Source: an uncultured Actinomycetes bacterium
Lineage (GTDB): Bacteria > Actinomycetota > Thermoleophilia > Gaiellales > Gaiellaceae
DNA: 64,000 nt
Reading direction: 5' to 3'
Assembly: GCA_963759365.1 (NCBI GenBank)
Contig: CAVWYX010000007.1
Span: 29,422 to 93,421 of the forward strand
Of the stretch, positions 10,898 through 44,544 are shown piece after piece; within the stretch, counting starts at the first letter, position 1, and each line of letters opens with the position of its first letter. Under the pieces are notes generated by a model, which was not told the origin of the DNA, made no database searches, and saw only the letters and a program-made list of their open reading frames with translations. A program made the translations under genes and the position numbers.

Positions 10898-11007
10898 GGG
10901 CTGCGCGAGCGTCCTCTCCCCCAGGTCTCGGTAGTTCAGGTATTACCGCTACTCCGTAGTTGGAGAGAGAACCCTCGCCTGGGCGAGTTTTGCGGAATGA
11001 CGCCCGA
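10898..11007 (+). repeat. J2: full junction L-M(v1)-H-R
   Basis: cgggctgcgcgagcgtcctctccc...ggtattaccgctactccgtagttggagagagaaccctcgcctgggcgagttttgcggaatgacgcccga. Confidence 0.9.
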
Positions 11008-11457: not shown

Positions 11458-11467
11458 GGACACCGGA

Positions 11468-11502
11468 GTCGGCTGGGCCAGTGTTCGGGAATGTCACCTG
11501 AG
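11468..11502 (+). repeat. J3: R-only junction
   Basis: gtcggctgggccagtgttcgggaatgtcacctgag. Confidence 0.9.
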
Positions 11503-11503
11503 T

Positions 11504-12016
11504 TTGCGGCAGTTAGCGTTAACGGCCGTGCGGGAGGGCTCGGGACAGCTTGTCCTTCGCGAGATCGAAGATCGTGATCTCGGCGTGCTGTTCGAGCACT
11601 CGAGGGATCGCGACGCTATACGGATGGCCGCGTTCACTTCGCCGGAGGCCGATGATCGAACGAGCTTCGAGCGACGGTGGGCGCGGCTGAGGAGCGACGG
11701 CTTTACGAGGAACAGGGTCGTCGAGATCGACGGTCGAGTTGTGGGTCACATTGCGAGCTTCGACTTGGAGGGTCACCGCGAGGTCACCTATTGGATCGGC
11801 CGTGAAGATTGGGGCCGCGGCATTGCCACGCGTGCCCTGCAAGAGTTCTTGCAGCTGGAGGCAACCCGTCCGCTTTACGCTCACGCTGCGAGCGACAACG
11901 CCGCGTCGATTCGTGTGTTGACGAAGTGCGGTTTCCTTATCGTGGGCGAGGGGCGCGAGTTCGCTCATGGGCGCAACGAGGAAACGGACGAGGTCGTCCT
12001 CCGACTCGATGCATGA
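11504..12016 (+). CDS. GNAT family N-acetyltransferase (copy 1; copy 2 at 36960)
   Basis: LVLREIEDRDLGVLFEH...YWIGREDWGRGIATRALQEFL. The start may be GTG 11528. Confidence 0.8.
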   Translation: MRQLALTAVREGSGQLVLREIEDRDLGVLFEHSRDRDAIRMAAFTSPEADDRTSFERRWARLRSDGFTRNRVVEIDGRVVGHIASFDLEGHREVTYWIGREDWGRGIATRALQEFLQLEATRPLYAHAASDNAASIRVLTKCGFLIVGEGREFAHGRNEETDEVVLRLDA

Positions 12017-12025
12017 CCCCAACTG

Positions 12026-12062
12026 CCCTCGGCTGCGCCAGTGTTCGCGAATGTTCCCTGAG
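12026..12062 (+). repeat. J4: R-only junction
   Basis: ccctcggctgcgccagtgttcgcgaatgttccctgag. Confidence 0.85.
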
Positions 12063-12849: not shown

Positions 12850-12951
12850 CTGAGCGAGCCTCCTCTCCCCTGAGGTAGTCGGGTATTACCGCTACTCAGT
12901 AGTTGAAGAGGGAACCCTCGCCTGGGCCAGTGTTCCGGAATGACCCCCGAG
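12850..12951 (+). repeat. J5: full junction L-M(v1)-H-R
   Basis: ctgagcgagcctcctctcccctgaggtagtcgggtattaccgctactcagtagttgaagagggaaccctcgcctgggccagtgttccggaatgacccccgag. Confidence 0.9.
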
Positions 12952-12972
12952 CGGGGACGCTTGGTGGCCCGA

Positions 12973-13497
12973 TTAGCTTCCCCGCGTTTCCGGGCGAATC
13001 GGCAGCATCAGTGAGCAATAGCCGTTGATCAGGGCGTAGCCGCTGTCGGTGTAGAGACGGAGAGCGGGGTCGTTGTCTTCCTCGGTCTGCACGACTAGGC
13101 GGAGTGCGCCCGACGCGATTGCAGCCGCTTGGACGGAGCTGAGAAGGGCACGACCGACTCCACGACGACGGTGCGTCGGCAGGACGAAAAGGTCTCTGAT
13201 CTGCCAGAAGTGGGCGAGCCGCAAGGATGCCGGTACTTCCATCGTGATCGCGAAGCCGACGAACCTCCCACTGTCTTCGGCGACGAACGCGCGTAGCTGG
13301 GTGCTGAGGTTCTGTTCCAGCCAACCTATTGCCTGGGAGGAGTAGGAAGCCTCGCCGTAGTGGGCGCGATACTTGTCGAAGAGCTCGGCGAGTGCTTCGA
13401 TTTCGGAGCGTGTCGGTGCGGTCAGAGTCCGAACTGAGACCGGCTCGCTGGTGGCCGAAGGACTGGCATGGGTGTTCTGACTCACGGCTCTCTCCAC
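12973..13497 (-). CDS. GNAT family N-acetyltransferase (copy 1; frameshifted copy at 21237)
   Basis: 174 aa; FVLPTHRRRGVGRALLSSVQAAAIASGALRLVVQTEEDNDPALRLYTDSGY. Confidence 0.8.
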   Translation of the reverse strand: MERAVSQNTHASPSATSEPVSVRTLTAPTRSEIEALAELFDKYRAHYGEASYSSQAIGWLEQNLSTQLRAFVAEDSGRFVGFAITMEVPASLRLAHFWQIRDLFVLPTHRRRGVGRALLSSVQAAAIASGALRLVVQTEEDNDPALRLYTDSGYALINGYCSLMLPIRPETRGS

Positions 13498-13524
13498 GAA
13501 AACGGTATCGCCAAGCGGCAGTAA

Positions 13525-13633
13525 CCTCGCCTGGGCCAGCGTCCTCTCACCTGAAGGCCCTTCCGGTATTACCGATACTCAGTAGTTACACGCTGGATGC
13601 GGGGTCGGCCAGGGTCCGCGATGTCACCCGACG
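13525..13633 (+). repeat. J6: L-M(v1) then variant spacer and R tail
   Basis: cctcgcctgggccagcgtcctctcacctgaaggcccttccggtattaccgatactcagtagtt|acacgctggatgcggggtcggccagggtccgcgatgtcacccgacg. Confidence 0.85.
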
Positions 13634-14437
13634 ATCGCCGTCGACAAGTGGGTTGCGTGTTCGCGTATGTGTGCCTCGGCGCTTTCCCAGCTCTCAAGGT
13701 GACCTTCGGCGAGCAGTCGGGCATACGGCGGTTTGCCAAGAAAGCCGAGGTCGTGAATGAGCTGTGCCTCGCGGCCGCAGCGTTCCACAGCGACATCCAA
13801 GATGTCGGCGGGGAAAATCGCGGCCCCGTAGCCTTCGCGGAAGACATGGATGCGACGCCTTGTCTCGACCAGGCTGAGCTGGGAAGCGGGCATCAGAGGG
13901 ACGAAGCTGAGTAACGCCCAGGCGAGATCCCACGAGCGTCGGCCCGGGCCAGCGAGGTCCCAGTCAATGAACGTCCATCCGTCGGCCCCGCGAACGAGGT
14001 TCCAGGGCGCGAGATCGTTGTGACAGAGCACCTCGCTAGGCCCGCGCGGGTCGCGACCCCCGGTCTGACCACGGCTGGCCGTCCAGCAACCGAAAGCCTG
14101 TGACAGCATCGTGGTAGCGGCGAATCAGAGCGGAGATTTCGGCAAGCGCCTGGTCGTCAGCCACAAGGTCGAAGTGGTCTGGCCACACGACCGCTCCATC
14201 GATGTAAGTGAGGATCTCGCGGCCCCGCTCGTCGATCCCTCGTACGCGAGGCGCCCCCTCGAACCCGCTCGACTCCAGGTGCCGCAGCAGTTCGTGGACA
14301 CACGGTGTCCACGGTCCGGTGGGGTGTCGCACGGTCGAACCGACCTTCACGACCTCCGCGCTCATATTCCCGCCTGAGAGCTGCTCCTCCACACAGACAT
14401 CCTGCCGCTCAAACCAGCGCCGCGCGACCACGCCCAA
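13624..14437 (-). pseudogene. aminoglycoside/choline-kinase-type phosphotransferase (APH fold), frame break about 14040-14105
   Basis: The N-part ORF is 14036..14437 and the C-part ORF is 13624..14109. The C-part carries [13 protein letters not shown] and IDWDLAG catalytic motifs. Confidence 0.7.
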
Positions 14438-14457
14438 ACGCCTCCGATGGGATCTCT

Positions 14458-14563
14458 GGGCTGCGCGAGCCTCCTCTCCCCGTTGTCAGTAGTCGGGTGT
14501 TACCGCTACTCAGTAGTTGGAAAGAGAACCCTCGGCTGGGCCAGTGACTCGGACAGGTCGACG
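14458..14563 (+). repeat. J7: L-M(v1)-H with degenerate R
   Basis: gggctgcgcgagcctcctctccccgttgtcagtagtcgggtgttaccgctactcagtagttggaaagagaaccctcggctgggccagtgactcggacaggtcgacg. Confidence 0.8.
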
Positions 14564-21105: not shown

Positions 21106-21137
21106 GGCGGATCGTAGTCGCGGTTTCGGCAGAACCT

Positions 21138-21215
21138 GGGTAGTCCGGTATCACCGCTACTCAGTAGTTGGAGAGGGAACCCTCGCCTGGGCCAGGTTCC
21201 GGAATGACCCCCGAG
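21138..21215 (+). repeat. J13: M(v1)-H-R
   Basis: gggtagtccggtatcaccgctactcagtagttggagagggaaccctcgcctgggccaggttccggaatgacccccgag. Confidence 0.85.
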
Positions 21216-21236
21216 CGGGGACGCTCGGTGGCCCGA

Positions 21237-21760
21237 TTAGCTTCCCCGCGTTTCCGGGCGAATCGGCAGCATCAGTGAGCAATAGCCGTTGATCAGGGCG
21301 TAGCCGCTGTCGGTGTAGAGACGGAGAGCGGGGTCGTTGTCTTCCTCGGTCTGCACGACTAGGCGGAGTGCGCCCGACGCGATTGCAGCCGATCGGACGG
21401 AGCTGAGAAGGGCACGACCGACTCCACGACGACGGTGCGTCGGCAGGACGAAAAGGTCTCTGATCTCCCAGAAGTGCGCGAGCCGCAAGGATGCCGGTAC
21501 TTCCATCGCGATCGCGAAGCCGACGAACCTCCCACTGCTTCGGCGACGAACGCGCGTAGGTGCGTGCTGAGGTTCTGTTCCAGCCAACCTATCGCCTGGG
21601 AGGAGTAGGAAGCCTCGCCGTAGTGGGCGCGATACTTGTCGAAGAGCTCGGCGAGTGCTTCGATTTCGCTGCGTGTCGGTGCGGTCAGAGTCCGAACTGA
21701 GACCGGCTCGCCGGTGGCTGAAGGACTGGGATGGGTCTTCTGACTCACGGCTCTCTCCAC
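21237..21760 (-). pseudogene. GNAT acetyltransferase, near-identical copy of 12973..13497 with a 1-nt deletion
   Basis: Collinear with 12973-13497. ctgtcttcggcg in copy 1 reads ctgcttcggcg here (about 21535), which splits the ORF into 21237..21587 and 21359..21838. Confidence 0.75.
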
Positions 21761-21787
21761 GAAAACGGTATCGCCAAGCGGCAGTAA

Positions 21788-21913
21788 CCTCGCCTGGGCC
21801 AGCGTTCTCTCACCTGAAGGCCCTTCCGGTATTACCACTACTCAGTAGTTGGAGAAAGAACCCTCGCTGCAGAGAACCCTCGCCTGCGCCAGCGTTCGGG
21901 AATGTCACTCGGG
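21788..21913 (+). repeat. J14: full L-M(v1)-H-R with internal H duplication
   Basis: cctcgcctgggccagcgttctctcacctgaaggcccttccggtattaccactactcagtagttggagaaagaaccctcgc tgc agagaaccctcgcctgcgccagcgttcgggaatgtcactcggg. Confidence 0.9.
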
Positions 21914-22570: not shown

Positions 22571-22679
22571 CTCGGCCTGGGCCAGCGTCCTCTCACCTGA
22601 AGGCTTCCGGTATTACCGCTACTCAGTAGTTGGAGAGAGAACCCTCGCCTGGGCCAGTGTTCGGGAATGTCCCCTGACG
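22571..22679 (+). repeat. J15: full junction, best consensus copy L-M(v1)-H-R
   Basis: ctcggcctgggccagcgtcctctcacctgaaggcttccggtattaccgctactcagtagttggagagagaaccctcgcctgggccagtgttcgggaatgtcccctgacg. Confidence 0.95.
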
Positions 22680-25995: not shown

Positions 25996-26107
25996 CCCTC
26001 GCGTGTGCGAGCGTACTATCGCTTGGGAGCTAGTCGGGGATAAAGACAACTCTGTAGTTGGAGAGAGAACCCTCGCCTGCGCCAGCGTTCAGGAATGTTC
26101 CCCGGAG
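25996..26107 (+). repeat. J17: full L-M(v2)-H-R
   Basis: ccctcgcgtgtgcgagcgtactatcgcttgggagctagtcggggataaagacaactctgtagttggagagagaaccctcgcctgcgccagcgttcaggaatgttccccggag. Confidence 0.9.
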
Positions 26108-26532: not shown

Positions 26533-26646
26533 CGCTCGCTTGGGCGAGCGTACTGTCGCCAGAGAGAGCAGTCGGGGATAAAGACAACTCTGTAGTTGGG
26601 CGGAGGACTCTCGCCTGCGCGAGTGTCCCGGAATGTCGCCGTGAGG
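26533..26646 (+). repeat. J18: full L-M(v2)-H-R with covarying stem
   Basis: cgctcgcttgggcgagcgtactgtcgccagagagagcagtcggggataaagacaactctgtagttgggcggaggactctcgcctgcgcgagtgtcccggaatgtcgccgtgagg. Confidence 0.85.
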
Positions 26647-29225: not shown

Positions 29226-29260
29226 AGGCGACATGGACTCACCACAAGTGACCGTCGCAT

Positions 29261-29360
29261 GGCGAGCATCCTCTCGCCTGAAGACTGTTCCGGTATAGAC
29301 GCTACTCAGTAGTTGGAGAGAGAACCCTCGCCTGCGCGAGTGTGCGGGAAGTATCTCGAG
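29261..29360 (+). repeat. J22: full L-M(v1)-H-R, 35 nt after J21 (empty cassette between)
   Basis: ggcgagcatcctctcgcctgaagactgttccggtatagacgctactcagtagttggagagagaaccctcgcctgcgcgagtgtgcgggaagtatctcgag. Confidence 0.85.
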
Positions 29361-29451: not shown

Positions 29452-29668
29452 GAGGCGCCCCCTCGAACCCGCTCGACTCCAGGTGCCGCAGCAGTTCGTG
29501 GACACACGGTGTCCACGGTCCGGTGGGGCGTCGCACGGTCGAACCGACCTTCACGACCTCCGCGCTCATATTCCCGCCTGAGAGTTGCTCCTCCACACAG
29601 ACATCCTGACGCTCAAACCAGCGCGGCGCGAACACGCCCAAACGCCTCCGATGGGATCTCTGGGCGCG
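29452..29668 (-). pseudogene. N-terminal fragment of the APH-like phosphotransferase (duplicate of 14236-14460)
   Basis: About 215 nt nearly identical to 14236-14460. It encodes MSAEVVKVGSTVRRPTGPWTPCVHELLRHLESSGFEGAP and then stops being homologous. Confidence 0.7.
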
Positions 29669-35589: not shown

Positions 35590-35697
35590 CCCTTTGGGTG
35601 AGCGTGCTGTCACTAGAGCGCAGTCCGTGGTAATGGCGACTCTGTAGTTGGAGAGAGAACCCTCGCCTGCGCCGGCGTTCGGGAATGTCACCCGACG
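35590..35697 (+). repeat. J30: full L-M(v2)-H-R
   Basis: ccctttgggtgagcgtgctgtcactagagcgcagtccgtggtaatggcgactctgtagttggagagagaaccctcgcctgcgccggcgttcgggaatgtcacccgacg. Confidence 0.9.
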
Positions 35698-35709: not shown

Positions 35710-36363
35710 TCATTCGTCGTCCTGCTCGGTGGTGGCGGTTGCATACTGCGGGCGTCCGGTGGGCCGATAGACCTGGATCGTTACGCCCTTCGAGTCGGCT
35801 CTCGAGTCGACCAGGTCAAGCGCAATGTCCGGGCCGGCCTCGGGGAACAGCCGCGTGCCCTGGCCGACGACCACGGGGACGATGAGCAGGTTGATCTCGT
35901 CGACCAGGTCGTTTTCGAGCAGCCATCGGATCAGGGCACCGCTGCCGTGCACCTGCAGCTCACCCGCCGGCTTGGCTTTCAGCTCGCCGATTGCCGCCGC
36001 GAGGTCACCGGAGAGGAGGGTCGTGTTCGCCCAGCGCGGTTCGGTGAGCGTGGTCGATGCGAGGTACTTGGGCTTCGTGTTCAAGGCAGCTGCGATCTGG
36101 TGGTTGCCCGGATCTTCCAGCGCGGCGCGAGCCCGCTCCTCTGCGCCCCAGTAGCCGGCGAAGAGCTCGTAGGTCCGCCGGCCGAACAGGAACGCGTCGG
36201 CGCGCTGGTAGGTCTGGTTGATGAACGTCATGGTCTCGTTGTCGAACACCCCCATGGCCCATCCGCCGCGCTCGAATCCGTTCCTGCGGTCCTCATCCGA
36301 CGCGCCGCCGTTTCCCTGCATCACTCCATCGACGGTGACTTGCGTCATGGTGGTCAGTTTCAT
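35710..36363 (-). CDS. RibD_C / dihydrofolate-reductase-like family protein
   Basis: 217 aa; MKLTTMTQVTVDGVMQG...FGRRTYELFAGYWG...LQVHGSGALIRWLLENDLVDEINLLIVPVVVGQGTRLF. Confidence 0.85.
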   Translation of the reverse strand: MKLTTMTQVTVDGVMQGNGGASDEDRRNGFERGGWAMGVFDNETMTFINQTYQRADAFLFGRRTYELFAGYWGAEERARAALEDPGNHQIAAALNTKPKYLASTTLTEPRWANTTLLSGDLAAAIGELKAKPAGELQVHGSGALIRWLLENDLVDEINLLIVPVVVGQGTRLFPEAGPDIALDLVDSRADSKGVTIQVYRPTGRPQYATATTEQDDE

Positions 36364-36516
36364 GGGTTCGTCCTTTCTCTCGTGCTGGTCTTTCTCGTTA
36401 TGACCGCACCGAGGCGCGGAGCTCATCGGTCGCAGCAGAGTCTTCCGTCCGGCCGAATCGAGCCTGAGGATCTGGAAGACGGAGCTGGCAGAGTCGTGGT
36501 CAACAAAGGAGGCGTC

Positions 36517-36921
36517 GTGTCGGGCCCGTTCATCTTCATCGCCACCAACCGTCTTAAGCCCGGGAAGCTCGCCGACGAAAGGAGGCGAGTGCCAGGCCTC
36601 GTCGACTTCATCGAAGCGAACGAGCCGCGGCTGATCGCGTTCAACGAGTACGTCAACGAGGATGGCACCGAAGTCGGGGTTGTCCAAGTTCACGCGGACG
36701 CCGACTCGATGCGGTTACACATGGAGATCATTGCCGAGCGTGCCGCCGCCGCGTACGCCGAAACGGTCGAGGCGACCACGAGCATCCAGGTTTTCGGCAC
36801 GCCGAGTGACGCCGTCCTCAGAATGCTCGAGCGTCAGGCTGGCGCCGGTGTCCCGCTGTTGGTCAAGCCCCACCACCTCGGTGGGTTCACACGCCCACAC
36901 CGTTGGGAACCGGTGACGTAA
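36517..36921 (+). CDS. ferredoxin-like (ABM-type) protein of unknown function
   Basis: GTG 36517 after AAAGGAGG; SGPFIFIATNRLKPGKLADERRRVPGLVDFIEANEPRLIAFNEYVNEDGTEVGVVQVHADADSM. Confidence 0.6.
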   Translation: MSGPFIFIATNRLKPGKLADERRRVPGLVDFIEANEPRLIAFNEYVNEDGTEVGVVQVHADADSMRLHMEIIAERAAAAYAETVEATTSIQVFGTPSDAVLRMLERQAGAGVPLLVKPHHLGGFTRPHRWEPVT

Positions 36922-36958
36922 TCGTCGGCTGGGCCAGTGTTCGGGAATGTCACCTGAG
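36922..36958 (+). repeat. J31: R-only junction (consensus-like)
   Basis: tcgtcggctgggccagtgttcgggaatgtcacctgag. Confidence 0.95.
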
Positions 36959-36959
36959 T

Positions 36960-37472
36960 TTGCGGCAGTTAGCGTTAACGGCCGTGCGGGAGGGTTCGGG
37001 ACAGCTTGTCCTTCGCGAGATCGAAGATCGTGATCTCGGCGTGCTGTTCGAGCACTCGAGGGATCGCGACGCTATACGGATGGCCGCGTTCACTTCGCCG
37101 GAGGCCGATGATCGAGCGAGCTTCGAGCGACGGTGGGCGCGGCTGAGGAGCGACGGCTCTACGACGAACAGGGTCGTCGAGATCGACGGTCGAGTTGTGG
37201 GTCACATTGCGAGCTTCGACTTGGAGGGTCACCGCGAGGTCACCTATTGGATCGGCCGTGAAGATTGGGGCCGCGGCATTGCCACGCGTGCCCTACAAGA
37301 GTTCTTGCAGCTGGAGGCAACCCGTCCGCTTTACGCTCATGCTGCGAGCGACAACGCCGCGTCGATTCGTGTGTTGACGAAGTGCGGTTTCCTTATCGTG
37401 GGCGAGGGCCGCGAGTTCGCTCATGGGCGCAACGAGGAAACGGACGAGGTCGTGCTCCGACTCGATGCATGA
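36960..37472 (+). CDS. GNAT family N-acetyltransferase (copy 2 of 11504..12016)
   Basis: Collinear with 11504-12016 at a constant offset of 25456, with roughly ten substitutions by eye. Confidence 0.8.
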   Translation: MRQLALTAVREGSGQLVLREIEDRDLGVLFEHSRDRDAIRMAAFTSPEADDRASFERRWARLRSDGSTTNRVVEIDGRVVGHIASFDLEGHREVTYWIGREDWGRGIATRALQEFLQLEATRPLYAHAASDNAASIRVLTKCGFLIVGEGREFAHGRNEETDEVVLRLDA

Positions 37473-37482
37473 CCCCAACTGT

Positions 37483-37607
37483 CCTCGGCTGGACGAGCGT
37501 GCCGTCTCTCGAGCGCAGTCGGGGGTAAACGCAACTCTGTAGTCACTGGCGCGACTATCGGCAGCGACCCCGTCGCTTGGGCCAGCGTTCGGGAATGACG
37601 CCTGAGG
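37483..37607 (+). repeat. J32: L-M(v2), spacer, R
   Basis: cctcggctg|gacgagcgtgccgtctctcgagcgcagtcgggggtaaacgcaactctgtagtc|actggcgcgactatcggcagcgaccccgtcgcttgggccagcgttcgggaatgacgcctgagg. Confidence 0.85.
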
Positions 37608-39190: not shown

Positions 39191-39229
39191 GCGCTCGCCT
39201 GGACCAGCGTGCCGGAATGTCACCCGACC
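39191..39229 (+). repeat. J33: R-only junction
   Basis: gcgctcgcctggaccagcgtgccggaatgtcacccgacc. Confidence 0.85.
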
Positions 39230-39327
39230 GCCGTGGGCGATTGTGTCGCGGCGTGGTGACAGACTGTTGCTTATCCAGACTGGCACGCGTAGTCTCGCGC
39301 CCAAGTCCTCTACCCAGGGAGGTCCTC

Positions 39328-40218
39328 ATGACCACCACCAGCCTGCTCCCTGACGTCGGGATCGAGCTTCGGGAGGGTTATGCCAAGGTCGGCGATCAGA
39401 CCTTGCATTACGTCGAGGCCGGTGACGGGCCGCTGATCGTTCTGTTGCACGGCTTTCCCGAGTTCTGGTTCGGTTGGCGGCTACAGATCGAGCCGCTCAC
39501 GGCGGCGGGTTTTCGGGTAGTCGCCCCCGACACGCGTGGCTACAACCTGTCATCGAAGCCAGAGGGCTTCGAGTCCTACGGCGTCGACCTGCTCGCCGCC
39601 GACATCCGCGGCCTCATCGGAGAACTCGGTGCCGAGTCTGCGCTGTTGGTCGGTCACGACTGGGGCGGAAGCATCGCCTGGACCATCGCGATGAACCACC
39701 CCGAGGTGGTCGACCGACTCGCCATCCTCAACGCGGCCCATCCGCGGCGGCTCTCGGAGGGACTGCACCACCCGAGCCAGCTTCGGAAGTCCTGGTACTT
39801 CTTCTTCTTCGCAACACCCGGACTGCCCGAGGAGATCGTGCCCGCCAGAGACTGGCACTTCTTCCGACACTTCCTGCATGACGCGAACCCGCCTTACACG
39901 CCGCAGGAGATCGAACGCTACATCGAGGCGTGGTCACAGCCGGGGGCAGCGGCCGGGATGATCAACTACTACCGAGCCTCGGTACGACAGTCCCAGAAGG
40001 AAGCCGCAGCAAAGCTTCGCCCGATCTCGGCGCCGACACTGGTCATCTGGGGGGAGCGCGATTCCTACCTCGGCTCCGACCTCGCCGAGCCCGACCGCGA
40101 CGACGTGCCCAACCTCGACCGCGTGGAGCGCCTGGCCGACGCGTCCCACTGGGTGCATCACGACGAGGCTGAACGCGTCAACCAACTGCTCATCGACTTC
40201 TTCGCCGCCGCCGGGTAA
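39328..40218 (+). CDS. epoxide-hydrolase-like alpha/beta hydrolase
   Basis: ATG 39328 after AGGGAGG; LLHGFPEFWFGWR, GHDWGG, HWVHHDEAERVNQLL. Confidence 0.85.
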   Translation: MTTTSLLPDVGIELREGYAKVGDQTLHYVEAGDGPLIVLLHGFPEFWFGWRLQIEPLTAAGFRVVAPDTRGYNLSSKPEGFESYGVDLLAADIRGLIGELGAESALLVGHDWGGSIAWTIAMNHPEVVDRLAILNAAHPRRLSEGLHHPSQLRKSWYFFFFATPGLPEEIVPARDWHFFRHFLHDANPPYTPQEIERYIEAWSQPGAAAGMINYYRASVRQSQKEAAAKLRPISAPTLVIWGERDSYLGSDLAEPDRDDVPNLDRVERLADASHWVHHDEAERVNQLLIDFFAAAG

Positions 40219-40856: not shown

Positions 40857-40903
40857 GGTGCAGCTCCATCGACGGAGACGAGCGTCGTGGTCGTCAGTTT
40901 CAT
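40853..40903 (-). pseudogene. 16-codon N-terminal remnant of a 35710-type DHFR-like gene, now a uORF overlapping the 40856 start (ATGA)
   Basis: MKLTTTTLVSVDGAAP plus stop. The first ~50 nt plus ~110 nt of leader are collinear with 36312-36475. Confidence 0.5.
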
Positions 40904-41012
40904 GGGTTCGTCCTTTCTCTCGTGGTGGTCTTTCTCGTTTACGACCGCACCGAGGCGCGGATCTCATCGGTCCCAGCAGAGGCCGTCCCGGCCGAATCGA
41001 GCCTGAGGATCT

Positions 41013-41026
41013 GATACTCAGTAGTT
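41013..41026 (+). repeat. J35: M-core remnant
   Basis: gatactcagtagtt, directly abutting the conserved DHFR leader. Confidence 0.45.
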
Positions 41027-43857: not shown

Positions 43858-44544
43858 ATGAGGGTCTGCATCGTCGGAGCCTCCGGGAAGCTCGGGCGGT
43901 ACATGGTCCAGCACGCACTGGATCGCGGCTACGAGGTGGTGTGCGTGTGCCGCGAGCGCAGCGTCGAGAAGCTCGATGCGTTCGAGGGGCGCATCACAGT
44001 CATTCCGGGAGCGACGGACGACCGCGAGGTCATCAAGCACGCAGTAGCGGGGTGCGACGGGGTGCTCGTCGTGCTGGTCCCGCGAGGCGTCCACGAGTAC
44101 TCGACGGGAACGGCCCAGGCTGTGCTCGACTACGCGCCTCCGGGCGCGCGGCTCGTGTTCTCGTGCGGGTGGCACATCACGCGCGACGGCCAGGACGTGT
44201 ACTCGTGGAAGCTGAAGGCGATCGTGAAGGTCTTCGGCCCACTCGCACGCCTCGCCCGCTTCGCCGACCTCGACGACCAGGTGGAGGCGTGCCGGCGGGT
44301 GTTCGCCAGCGACACGCGATGGACCGTCGTACGTGGGAGCGACCTCGAGGAGGGCGAGAGCCAGGGTCTGCCCGTGTGGAGCCGGCACGTGGGCGACCCC
44401 ATTCTCGAGAGCAACATCACGCGCCGCGTGGACTTTGCCCTGTTCATGGTGGAGGCCCTCGAGAACGACGAGCTCGTCCACGAGGCTCCGGCGATCGTCG
44501 GCCGCCAGACCCCCTCGGCGCTCGCACACGCGGCCGGCGAGTGA
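43858..44544 (+). CDS. NAD(P)H-binding (NmrA/BVR-B-like) oxidoreductase
   Basis: 228 aa; MRVCIVGASGKLGRYMV Rossmann motif. Confidence 0.8.
   Translation: MRVCIVGASGKLGRYMVQHALDRGYEVVCVCRERSVEKLDAFEGRITVIPGATDDREVIKHAVAGCDGVLVVLVPRGVHEYSTGTAQAVLDYAPPGARLVFSCGWHITRDGQDVYSWKLKAIVKVFGPLARLARFADLDDQVEACRRVFASDTRWTVVRGSDLEEGESQGLPVWSRHVGDPILESNITRRVDFALFMVEALENDELVHEAPAIVGRQTPSALAHAAGE

Follow-up and report, generated by a model that had tools for sequence, protein, structure and literature searches.

The window analyzed here, a stretch of 64,000 nucleotides from an uncultured Actinomycetes bacterium of the family Gaiellaceae (class Thermoleophilia, phylum Actinomycetota; contig CAVWYX010000007.1), carries two near-identical copies of a gene for a GNAT (RimJ/RimL-like) acetyltransferase. 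This gene is probably a discrete mobile cassette belonging to a site-specific cassette system widespread in the Thermoleophilia, in which double-stranded sites of ~36 bp would be recombined within TG(N), a TG dinucleotide and the base N that follows it, by a recombinase encoded in trans. Each site has a left arm, TG(N), and a right arm of type R or of its shorter variant L, and some L arms are followed by a core named M. The two copies of the GNAT cassette and their junctions are listed below in window coordinates.

11468 to 12035, + strand: GNAT cassette copy 1, full homology span (568 nt).
11477 (GCCAG...) to the TG at 12034-12035, + strand: copy 1 as the inherited unit, with limits taken from junction families and contexts.
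36924 to 37491, + strand: GNAT cassette copy 2, 98.4% identical to copy 1.
11528 to 12016, + strand: GNAT (RimJ/RimL-like) acetyltransferase open reading frame (ORF) of copy 1, from its translation and Pfam (PF13302/PF00583).
36984 to 37472, + strand: GNAT ORF of copy 2.
11465 to 11502, + strand: left junction site of copy 1, with the upstream cassette's arm GGAGTCGGC, TG at 11474-75, N = G at 11476, and the R arm GCCAGTGTTCGGGAATGTCACCTGAG at 11477-11502.
36921 to 36958, + strand: left junction site of copy 2, with the same R arm as copy 1, TG at 36930-31, and N = G.
12026 to 12062, + strand: right junction of copy 1, with its own 3′ arm CCCTCGGC, TG at 12034-35, N = C at 12036, and the next cassette's R arm GCCAGTGTTCGCGAATGTTCCCTGAG.
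37482 to 37606, + strand: right junction of copy 2, with the 3′ arm TCCTCGGC, TG at 37490-91, N = G, and the L-type arm ACGAGCGTGCCGTCTCTCGAG.
~37516 to 37546, + strand: M core after copy 2, reading ...GTAAACGCAACTCTGTAGTCAC, then an R site with its TG at 37578-79.

The initial annotation had described the cassette as duplicated at an offset of 25456 with about ten substitutions. Indeed, an ungapped comparison at this offset matched 11468-12035 to 36924-37491 over 568 nt with 9 mismatches (98.4% identity; at 11539, 11660, 11703, 11709, 11839, 11884, 11953, 11998, and 12026), and BLASTN returned the same 568-nt span. Eight of the substitutions fall within the ORF, five of them synonymous and three non-synonymous, and both ORFs, which match PF13302 (E = 3e-18), are intact; a TTG at 11504 may be an alternative start of the copy 1 ORF. 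The cassette gene has 1881 homologues at E ≤ 1e-10, the best 120 of which share 84-97% identity; judged from these and from the substitutions, it is abundant and under purifying selection. The same R box had been reported ahead of both copies, and it is indeed identical (TG-G-GCCAGTGTTCGGGAATGTCACCTGAG, with TG at 11474-75 and 36930-31). Both copies end in ...GACCCCAACTG(C/T)CCTCGGC-TG (TG at 12034-35 and 37490-91), and identity is lost at the first base past this TG (C at 12036 vs. G at 37492). From there on, copy 1 reads CGCCAGTGTTCGCGAATG, an R arm, and copy 2 reads GACGAGCGTGCCGTCTCTCGAG...GTAAACGCAACTCTGTAGTCAC, an L-M junction, so that the two copies do part at once into R and L-M as annotated. 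The adjacency of the GNAT cassette and L-M recurs in another locus (L100). The pair alone fixes the right-hand break only, because both upstream cassettes end in GTCGGC.

A site consensus was built from 359 sites outside the window and reads (A)CCTCGCC-TG-N-GCCAGYGTTCGGGAATGTCMCCTGAG, in one orientation and with ~36 bp in total. The information content per position is 0.5-0.9 bit in the left arm, 1.5-1.6 at TG, 0.9 at N, and ~1.3-1.9 in the right arm, and the site thus joins a weak left arm of 7 nt (CCTCGCC) to a strongly conserved R arm of 26 nt. The L arm is a variant of R that is ~6 nt shorter (GCGAGCGTCCTCTC..CCTGAGG). At the consensus level, the first six bases of both arms form an inverted repeat around TG (CTCGCC/GGCSAG); the 6-bp inverted arms that had been ascribed to both site types are perfect in L (CTCGCC/GGCGAG) but match at only five of six positions in R (CTCGCC/GGCCAG). 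Of 512 sites, 58% have G as N, 34% have C, and 8% have A or T. It is the base between TG and GCCAG at the window sites, including those at 11476, 12036, 36932, and 37492, and it is absent from one site of locus L020. The sites have a median spacing of 697 nt, corresponding to about one ORF per cassette, and the best ORF of each cassette lies on the + strand in 145 cases and on the - strand in 128, with no orientation bias.

Further features of the sites were observed. Positions +3 to +9 and +13 to +19 of the R arm are direct repeats (AGYGTTC and AATGTCM; 11480-11486 and 11490-11496 in the window) that lie 10 bp, or one helical turn, apart, and they may mark two positions where protein binds in tandem along the same face of the helix. 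An ATG within the R box was considered as a common start codon and rejected, as it was out of frame in both cassettes checked by eye (GNAT and SnoaL). In loci L077 (~2785-2835) and L087 (~560-620), sites stand head to head, with an inverted R arm, CA, one base, and a forward L/R arm, and the cassettes run outward both ways from this center; these head-to-head sites may be array origins or inversion products.

The position of the exchange was located with junction families, which are anchored on the site and whose members, from different species, have only one side in common. All 22 cross-species families, 12 of them left and 10 right, behave alike: position -4, the last base ahead of TG, and everything left of it go with the upstream cassette, and GCCAG... 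(position 0 and rightwards) goes with the downstream one. Odd left arms such as GCGCCA-TG, CAGGGC-TG, and CCTTCC-TG also track the upstream cassette, and rare right-arm variants, for example GTGCCGCGATG, travel with the downstream cassette.

A scan of soil metagenomes for the GNAT cassette gave 80 loci. The upstream site was recognizable in 39 of them, in 31 distinct contexts, and the 3′ arm was kept in 59, in 44 distinct downstream contexts; the CTCGGCTG 3′ arm was retained in 36 of these 44 independent contexts. At the upstream junction, the mean pairwise identity was 0.40 left of TG, 0.87 at T, 0.70 at G, 0.51 at N, and 0.94 at the first arm base. At the downstream junction, it went from 0.91 through 0.95 at T, 0.87 at G, and 0.46 at N to the level of site conservation. 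Since context identity steps there, the break is restricted to TG(N), 3 nt or fewer, at the leftmost edge of the conserved block. In the largest group of GNAT arm variants, N was C in eight, G in five, and A in one of the 14 contexts, and in another variant it was C in 8/8. The exchange at a defined crossover point proposed in the initial annotation is thus borne out by the 22 cross-species families and by the 31 and 44 GNAT contexts, which break at TG(N), and a catalog of breakpoints, also proposed there, showed that across species the breaks are not random relative to the core.

The same site was found in at least 119 stretches of Thermoleophilia metagenome-assembled genomes (MAGs) by an exact-pattern scan using one genome per species; among the matches listed, all 80 titles named Gaiellaceae, Solirubrobacterales/-aceae, Thermoleophilaceae, Thermoleophilia, or unclassified Actinomycetes/Actinomycetota MAGs. 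In an all-against-all BLASTN comparison, different species had cassette-sized segments in common at 90-99% identity, with differing neighbors and order. The arrays border unrelated core genes (clpB, dnaE, corA, purU, and others). Scanning IMG/VR for the site gave only two chance matches (GC 0.44 and 0.57), without the extended arm, and the site was absent from the PLSDB plasmids and INPHARED phages.

Among the shared cassettes, an RNase H-like one of 650 nt was 97-98% identical in three species with both flanks differing (L032 4510-5154, L041 4916-5560, and L049 1550-2197), and it has an L-spacer-R composite upstream. The largest ORF cluster, present in 26 of the 119 loci, comprises proteins of up to ~1175 aa with an adenylate/guanylate-cyclase domain (for example, L004 4214-7741, L037 3706-6648, L093 3988-6843, and L014 3122-5572). 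According to Pfam on the L065 member, some of them carry a fused alpha/beta-hydrolase; by eye, the long members look ATPase/TPR-rich; and for the member in the window (39217-40218) Pfam gave an alpha/beta-hydrolase only. As the genes of this cluster stand directly after R sites, cassettes can reach 3.5 kb. Homologues of cupin and GNAT cassettes have core genes on either side in L121 (9528-10489, on a 2.06-Mb contig) and L126/L127 (5600-10550): fpg and a pyrimidine-nucleoside phosphorylase gene, and HhH-GPD and corA. Their junction site has been deleted or has eroded, and they resemble fossils of cassettes that became fixed in the chromosome. The near-isogenic L126 and L127 were compared for recent cassette gain or loss; they are collinear, and no event was seen.

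The GNAT copies are part of a larger array in the window, whose other features are as follows.

9873 to 43710 (~34 kb), sites all on the + strand: whole cassette array of ~45 cassettes, with ~28 R-type and ~17 L-type TG sites and ~22 M cores.
12869 to 13587, + strand: second in-window duplicate (719 nt), 96.7% identical to 21135-21850.
14248 to 14461, + strand: third duplicate, a partial cassette 97.7% identical to 29452-29665.
10902-10985, 12851-12928, 22578-22655, 26004-26083, 26541-26621, 29259-29338, and 35595-35673: L-M-R junctions.

The R box was matched 24 times in the window vs. 3.2 times expected, a count that none of 100 shuffles reached, and 23 of the 24 matches are on the + strand, with one opposite. 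According to Pfam, the cargo consists of small genes (GNATs, cupins, glyoxalases, RibD_C, alpha/beta-hydrolases, MBL, SnoaL, SRPBCC, TetR, and methyltransferases) and a few larger ones (MFS, AI-2E, GH15, and AlkZ-like), with ORFs on both strands. Both ends of the array fall within the window: its left neighbors are a gene for an F420H2 quinone-reductase-like protein, an alpha/beta-hydrolase, and a rhomboid gene, and its right neighbors are NAD-binding and GT4 genes. The NAD(P)-binding gene at 43858-44544, just right of the last recognizable site, is a site-flanked cassette in L020, L063, and L099 (87-93% nucleotide identity), and the array may therefore continue past this point to the right, its sites there being eroded. 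Neither an Rfam scan nor a tRNA scan of the window returned a match. Two RibD_C-family genes on the - strand share a stretch of 150 nt at 90% identity (36324-36474 and 40864-41013) that spans the start codon and upstream region, and one copy of it ends beside a degenerate M core.

The L-M-R junctions amount to mini-cassettes without a gene, 72-78 nt between two TG sites, that carry the conserved core AGTCGGGTATTACCGCTACTCAGTAGT or GGGGATAAAGACAACTCTGTAGT. These mini-cassettes are limited to a few lineages (the window, L100, L109, and L110). M cores likewise occur in only a few lineages, and after GTAGT they go on either as TGGAGAGAGAACCCTCGCC or as YAC and unrelated sequence. A structured RNA in the L-M mini-cassette was considered and rejected, with a weak consensus fold (-4.4 kcal/mol) and an unfavorable covariation term (+0.37). 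The third duplicate ends on the right with ...TCTGGGC directly before the TG of an L site, and its left end lies within coding sequence.

The movement of these cassettes is probably explained by a recombinase encoded elsewhere in the genome that would pair two sites and swap strands inside TG(N). Two direct sites recombining in this way would release a circle bearing one rebuilt site, the reverse reaction would put the circle into any other site, and repeated rounds would build and reshuffle the arrays and pass cassettes between species. The polarity would be set by the non-palindromic TG, which would be the reason why all sites of an array point one way. The two GNAT copies of the window would then be two insertions, or one duplication by the same route, one having an R-type cassette as its neighbor and the other an L-M mini-cassette. 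By analogy, an exchange window of 2-3 nt with short inverted inner arms would be most like serine-type or IS110-type chemistry, and a transposase acting on asymmetric ends is a real alternative.

Several observations weigh against a site-specific system of this kind. The break, annotated as falling exactly at TG, does so at the right end of the GNAT pair, but at the left end homology begins 6 nt ahead of TG, and the GTCGGC arm found at this left end is rare (8/512 sites). Duplicated cassettes break at the core in the cross-species families and GNAT contexts; within the window, however, the pair 12869-13587 / 21135-21850 does not, and two others are partial. The former duplicate starts with GGTAGTC... 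and ends with ...CAGTAGTT, both inside M cores and not at TG, and it could result from unequal homologous exchange between M cores or from a second kind of site; the M-core ends hint at a second class of breakpoint. N is inherited with neither neighbor (0.51 and 0.46 identity), where a standard 2-bp or single-point exchange predicts otherwise. If N lay within the region of a staggered cut, and mismatches were tolerated and then segregated, it would be tied to neither side. In addition, some GNAT homologues stand in core-gene contexts without a recognizable site (L121, L126/127), and neither a circular cassette nor an empty site was observed. Finally, no tyrosine or serine recombinase was found in the window by phmmer (with IntI1, XerD, gamma-delta resolvase, and Hin), and Pfam on ~70 window ORFs gave neither a recombinase nor a transposase.

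The search for the enzyme was also carried to the ends of the window array, which carry no recombinase according to Pfam, and to the other array-bearing loci. The phmmer searches of the window and the 119 loci returned no IntI-like protein. Those with gamma-delta resolvase and Hin gave no serine recombinase, either among the six-frame ORFs of the window and the 119 loci (no match at E < 1) or in the 80 GNAT metagenome loci (at E < 0.1), and serine recombinases were thus absent from the ~1.3 Mb of array-bearing sequence searched. Three tyrosine-recombinase matches were obtained in the 119 loci. The integrases of L065 and L114 were rejected as the enzyme of the cassettes: the two share only 31% identity, and they lie by a tRNA 3′ end (L065) and by an excisionase-like gene (L114), like those of ordinary integrative elements. 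The third match is a partial ORF at the end of the L067 array, and the 80 GNAT loci added one truncated tyrosine recombinase (L128). Clustering the ORFs of the 119 loci gave no recurrent array-associated gene family as a candidate, the top clusters being cargo (cyclase/ATPase regulators, cupins, RibD_C, quinone oxidoreductases, GNATs, and methyltransferases). The genes between the opposed R boxes of L077 and L087 were likewise rejected as a transposase, as they encode a TolB-like propeller and a DUF4157-like protein, which are unrelated. Since the arrays adjoin unrelated core genes, the enzyme would act in trans.

Other mechanisms could generate arrays of this kind. Plain homologous recombination, gene conversion, or segmental duplication through the R boxes, with the sites serving another role, such as regulatory or structural intergenic repeats, would have 26-28 nt of near identity at its disposal in the R arm of each junction. 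It would also fit the left GNAT boundary 6 nt before TG and the 12869-13587 / 21135-21850 pair, whose ends inside M cores are like those of an unequal exchange. Crossovers of this type would, however, be expected mostly inside the long right arm, and the whole arm stays downstream in the 22 families and in the 31 + 44 contexts. Exchange within the arm is disfavored because arm variants are fully linked to the downstream cassette, and cassettes whose neighbors differ on both sides occur in dozens of species, making this explanation improbable. Alternatively, the cassettes might be non-autonomous transposon-like units moved in trans by a transposase (IS110-type with a 2-nt core, or IS630/Tc1-like at TG(N)). 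Such a unit would end on the left in a long conserved stretch (GCCAG...) and on the right in a short one (...CCTCGCC), and would prefer the junction beside an existing element. This would agree with conservation lying nearly all on one side of the break, with the short terminal inverted repeat GGCSAG/CTCGCC, with N belonging to neither cassette, like a target base, and with arrays at many unrelated chromosomal positions (the clpB, dnaE, corA, purU, and other neighborhoods). Yet N is not duplicated: adjacent N were equal in 208 of 378 cases vs. 209 ± 6 in within-locus permutations, and this lack of correlation between neighboring sites excludes a target-site duplication. The window ORFs scanned contain no transposase Pfam family, the subterminal or whole-element hairpins of IS200/IS605 PATE and REP/RAYT elements are absent, and no phage or plasmid in the collections scanned has the site. 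Transposon-like units therefore seem unlikely to us, although they deserve some weight.

The arrays work like integron cassette arrays yet lack the structural features of integrons, and also those of Xer/dif modules. A divergent integron, that is, a CALIN-type array with unusual attC sites and an IntI-type tyrosine integrase encoded elsewhere, would share with them the short, mostly single-gene cassettes (~0.7 kb), the single orientation of the sites, a fixed break, a site split between two cassettes, and the occurrence of mobile cassettes in several genomes in varied order. The cargo is also typical of chromosomal integrons (GNAT, glyoxalase, cupin, and SnoaL), and integrase-less arrays are known (PMC4889954). 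On the other hand, neither intI and attI nor a common promoter stands beside the first cassette of the window array. Integron attC sites are imperfect palindromes of 57-141 nt with R″ (RYYYAAC) and R′ (GTTRRRY) cores that are folded as single strands, and the crossover takes place between the G and TT of the R′ core. The sites described here are ~36 bp long, have no hairpin, and are conserved in sequence across the class, unlike attC, with the conserved part mostly at the 5′ start of the cassette rather than the 3′ end. When 120-nt windows around the junctions were folded, z was -0.10 (n = 120) vs. -0.19 for internal controls, no better than shuffles; there is no R″/R′ inverse-core pair (1/24 R boxes opposite); and the break lies 8 nt upstream of the sole GTT. 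For these three reasons, the sites are not attC. Moreover, ORFs show no orientation bias (145 + / 128 -), unrelated core genes flank many of the arrays, IntI-like proteins were missing from the sequences searched, and the IntegronFinder survey recorded no complete integron in any of its Actinobacteria (PMC4889954). Taken with the likenesses, these differences leave an integron origin extremely improbable. Xer-dependent modules, with dif-like sites recombined by the host XerC/XerD as in pdif modules of Acinetobacter plasmids or IMEX, would account for the lack of a dedicated recombinase nearby, and they too are gene modules between short, conserved, double-stranded sites; the AATGTCA of the right arm also resembles what we take to be the XerD-arm core of actinobacterial dif. 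The dif-like sites of pdif modules alternate in orientation and have a 6-bp spacer for XerC/XerD, whereas all sites here are direct repeats, and the arrays are chromosomal with tens of cassettes. An 11-6-11 layout with palindromic inner arms fits nowhere in the consensus, and any such layout would cleave 8-18 nt right of the observed break, which is at the edge of the conserved block and not in a 6-bp spacer. Neither are there inverted arms around a 6-8 bp overlap repeated at both ends of the unit, as tyrosine recombinases would use. A shared overlap of 6-8 bp is excluded because positions -4 and 0 are each tied to one side and because arms of the same cassette are no more alike (7/7 arm identity at 1.7% of adjacent vs. 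3.0% of non-adjacent sites). We thus hold the involvement of Xer to be very improbable.

Among other known systems are the serine recombinases, a link to which the initial annotation had raised as speculation. Their sites (resolvase/invertase site I and the att sites of large serine integrases) resemble those described here in their asymmetric central dinucleotide, short inverted arms (here CTCGCC/GGCSAG), and exchange of 2-3 bp, with a break here within T, G, and N; a non-palindromic center would also set polarity, which fits the uniform orientation. The half-sites here are, however, very unequal, with ~7 weak vs. 26 strong positions, and the base beside TG assorts independently and is linked to neither side, unlike in a strict TG overlap. 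The sfx sites of the R64 shufflon, on which Rci acts, are asymmetric as well, one arm being strongly conserved and the other variable. Shufflon sites are inverted, have a conserved 7-bp spacer, and give inversions only; in contrast, the sites here are direct, have a TG(N) core, and are associated with cassette gain, loss, and reordering. Like REPIN-RAYT elements, the sites occur lineage-wide as many short conserved intergenic copies with no enzyme gene nearby. REPs, however, are hairpins with a 5′ GTAG and no cargo; the sites described here form no hairpin, and their units have genes of 0.3-3.5 kb as cargo.

A search of the openly accessible literature on Thermoleophilia, cassettes, integron-like systems, and the site sequence found these arrays described nowhere. 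Tentatively, and with slightly more doubt than assurance, they may represent a new class of gene capture: a system equivalent in function to the integron but of independent origin in the Thermoleophilia, with a double-stranded site of ~36 bp, a dedicated recombinase acting in trans at an asymmetric TG beside a free base, many arrays per chromosome, and a cassette pool shared among abundant soil Actinomycetota.

Integrons are the textbook route for the capture and shuffling of single genes, and one of the most abundant classes of soil actinobacteria shows arrays that behave alike with a completely different site architecture. Which enzyme moves the cassettes becomes a directly testable question. 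If our reading is correct, it would point to a recombinase with a compact, directional site of possible use in genome engineering, and the 36-bp site could be used to mine a very large pool of cassettes in soil metagenomes (there are 1881 close homologues of the GNAT cassette alone). The arrays of the Thermoleophilia would then be a second, independent solution for modular gene acquisition.

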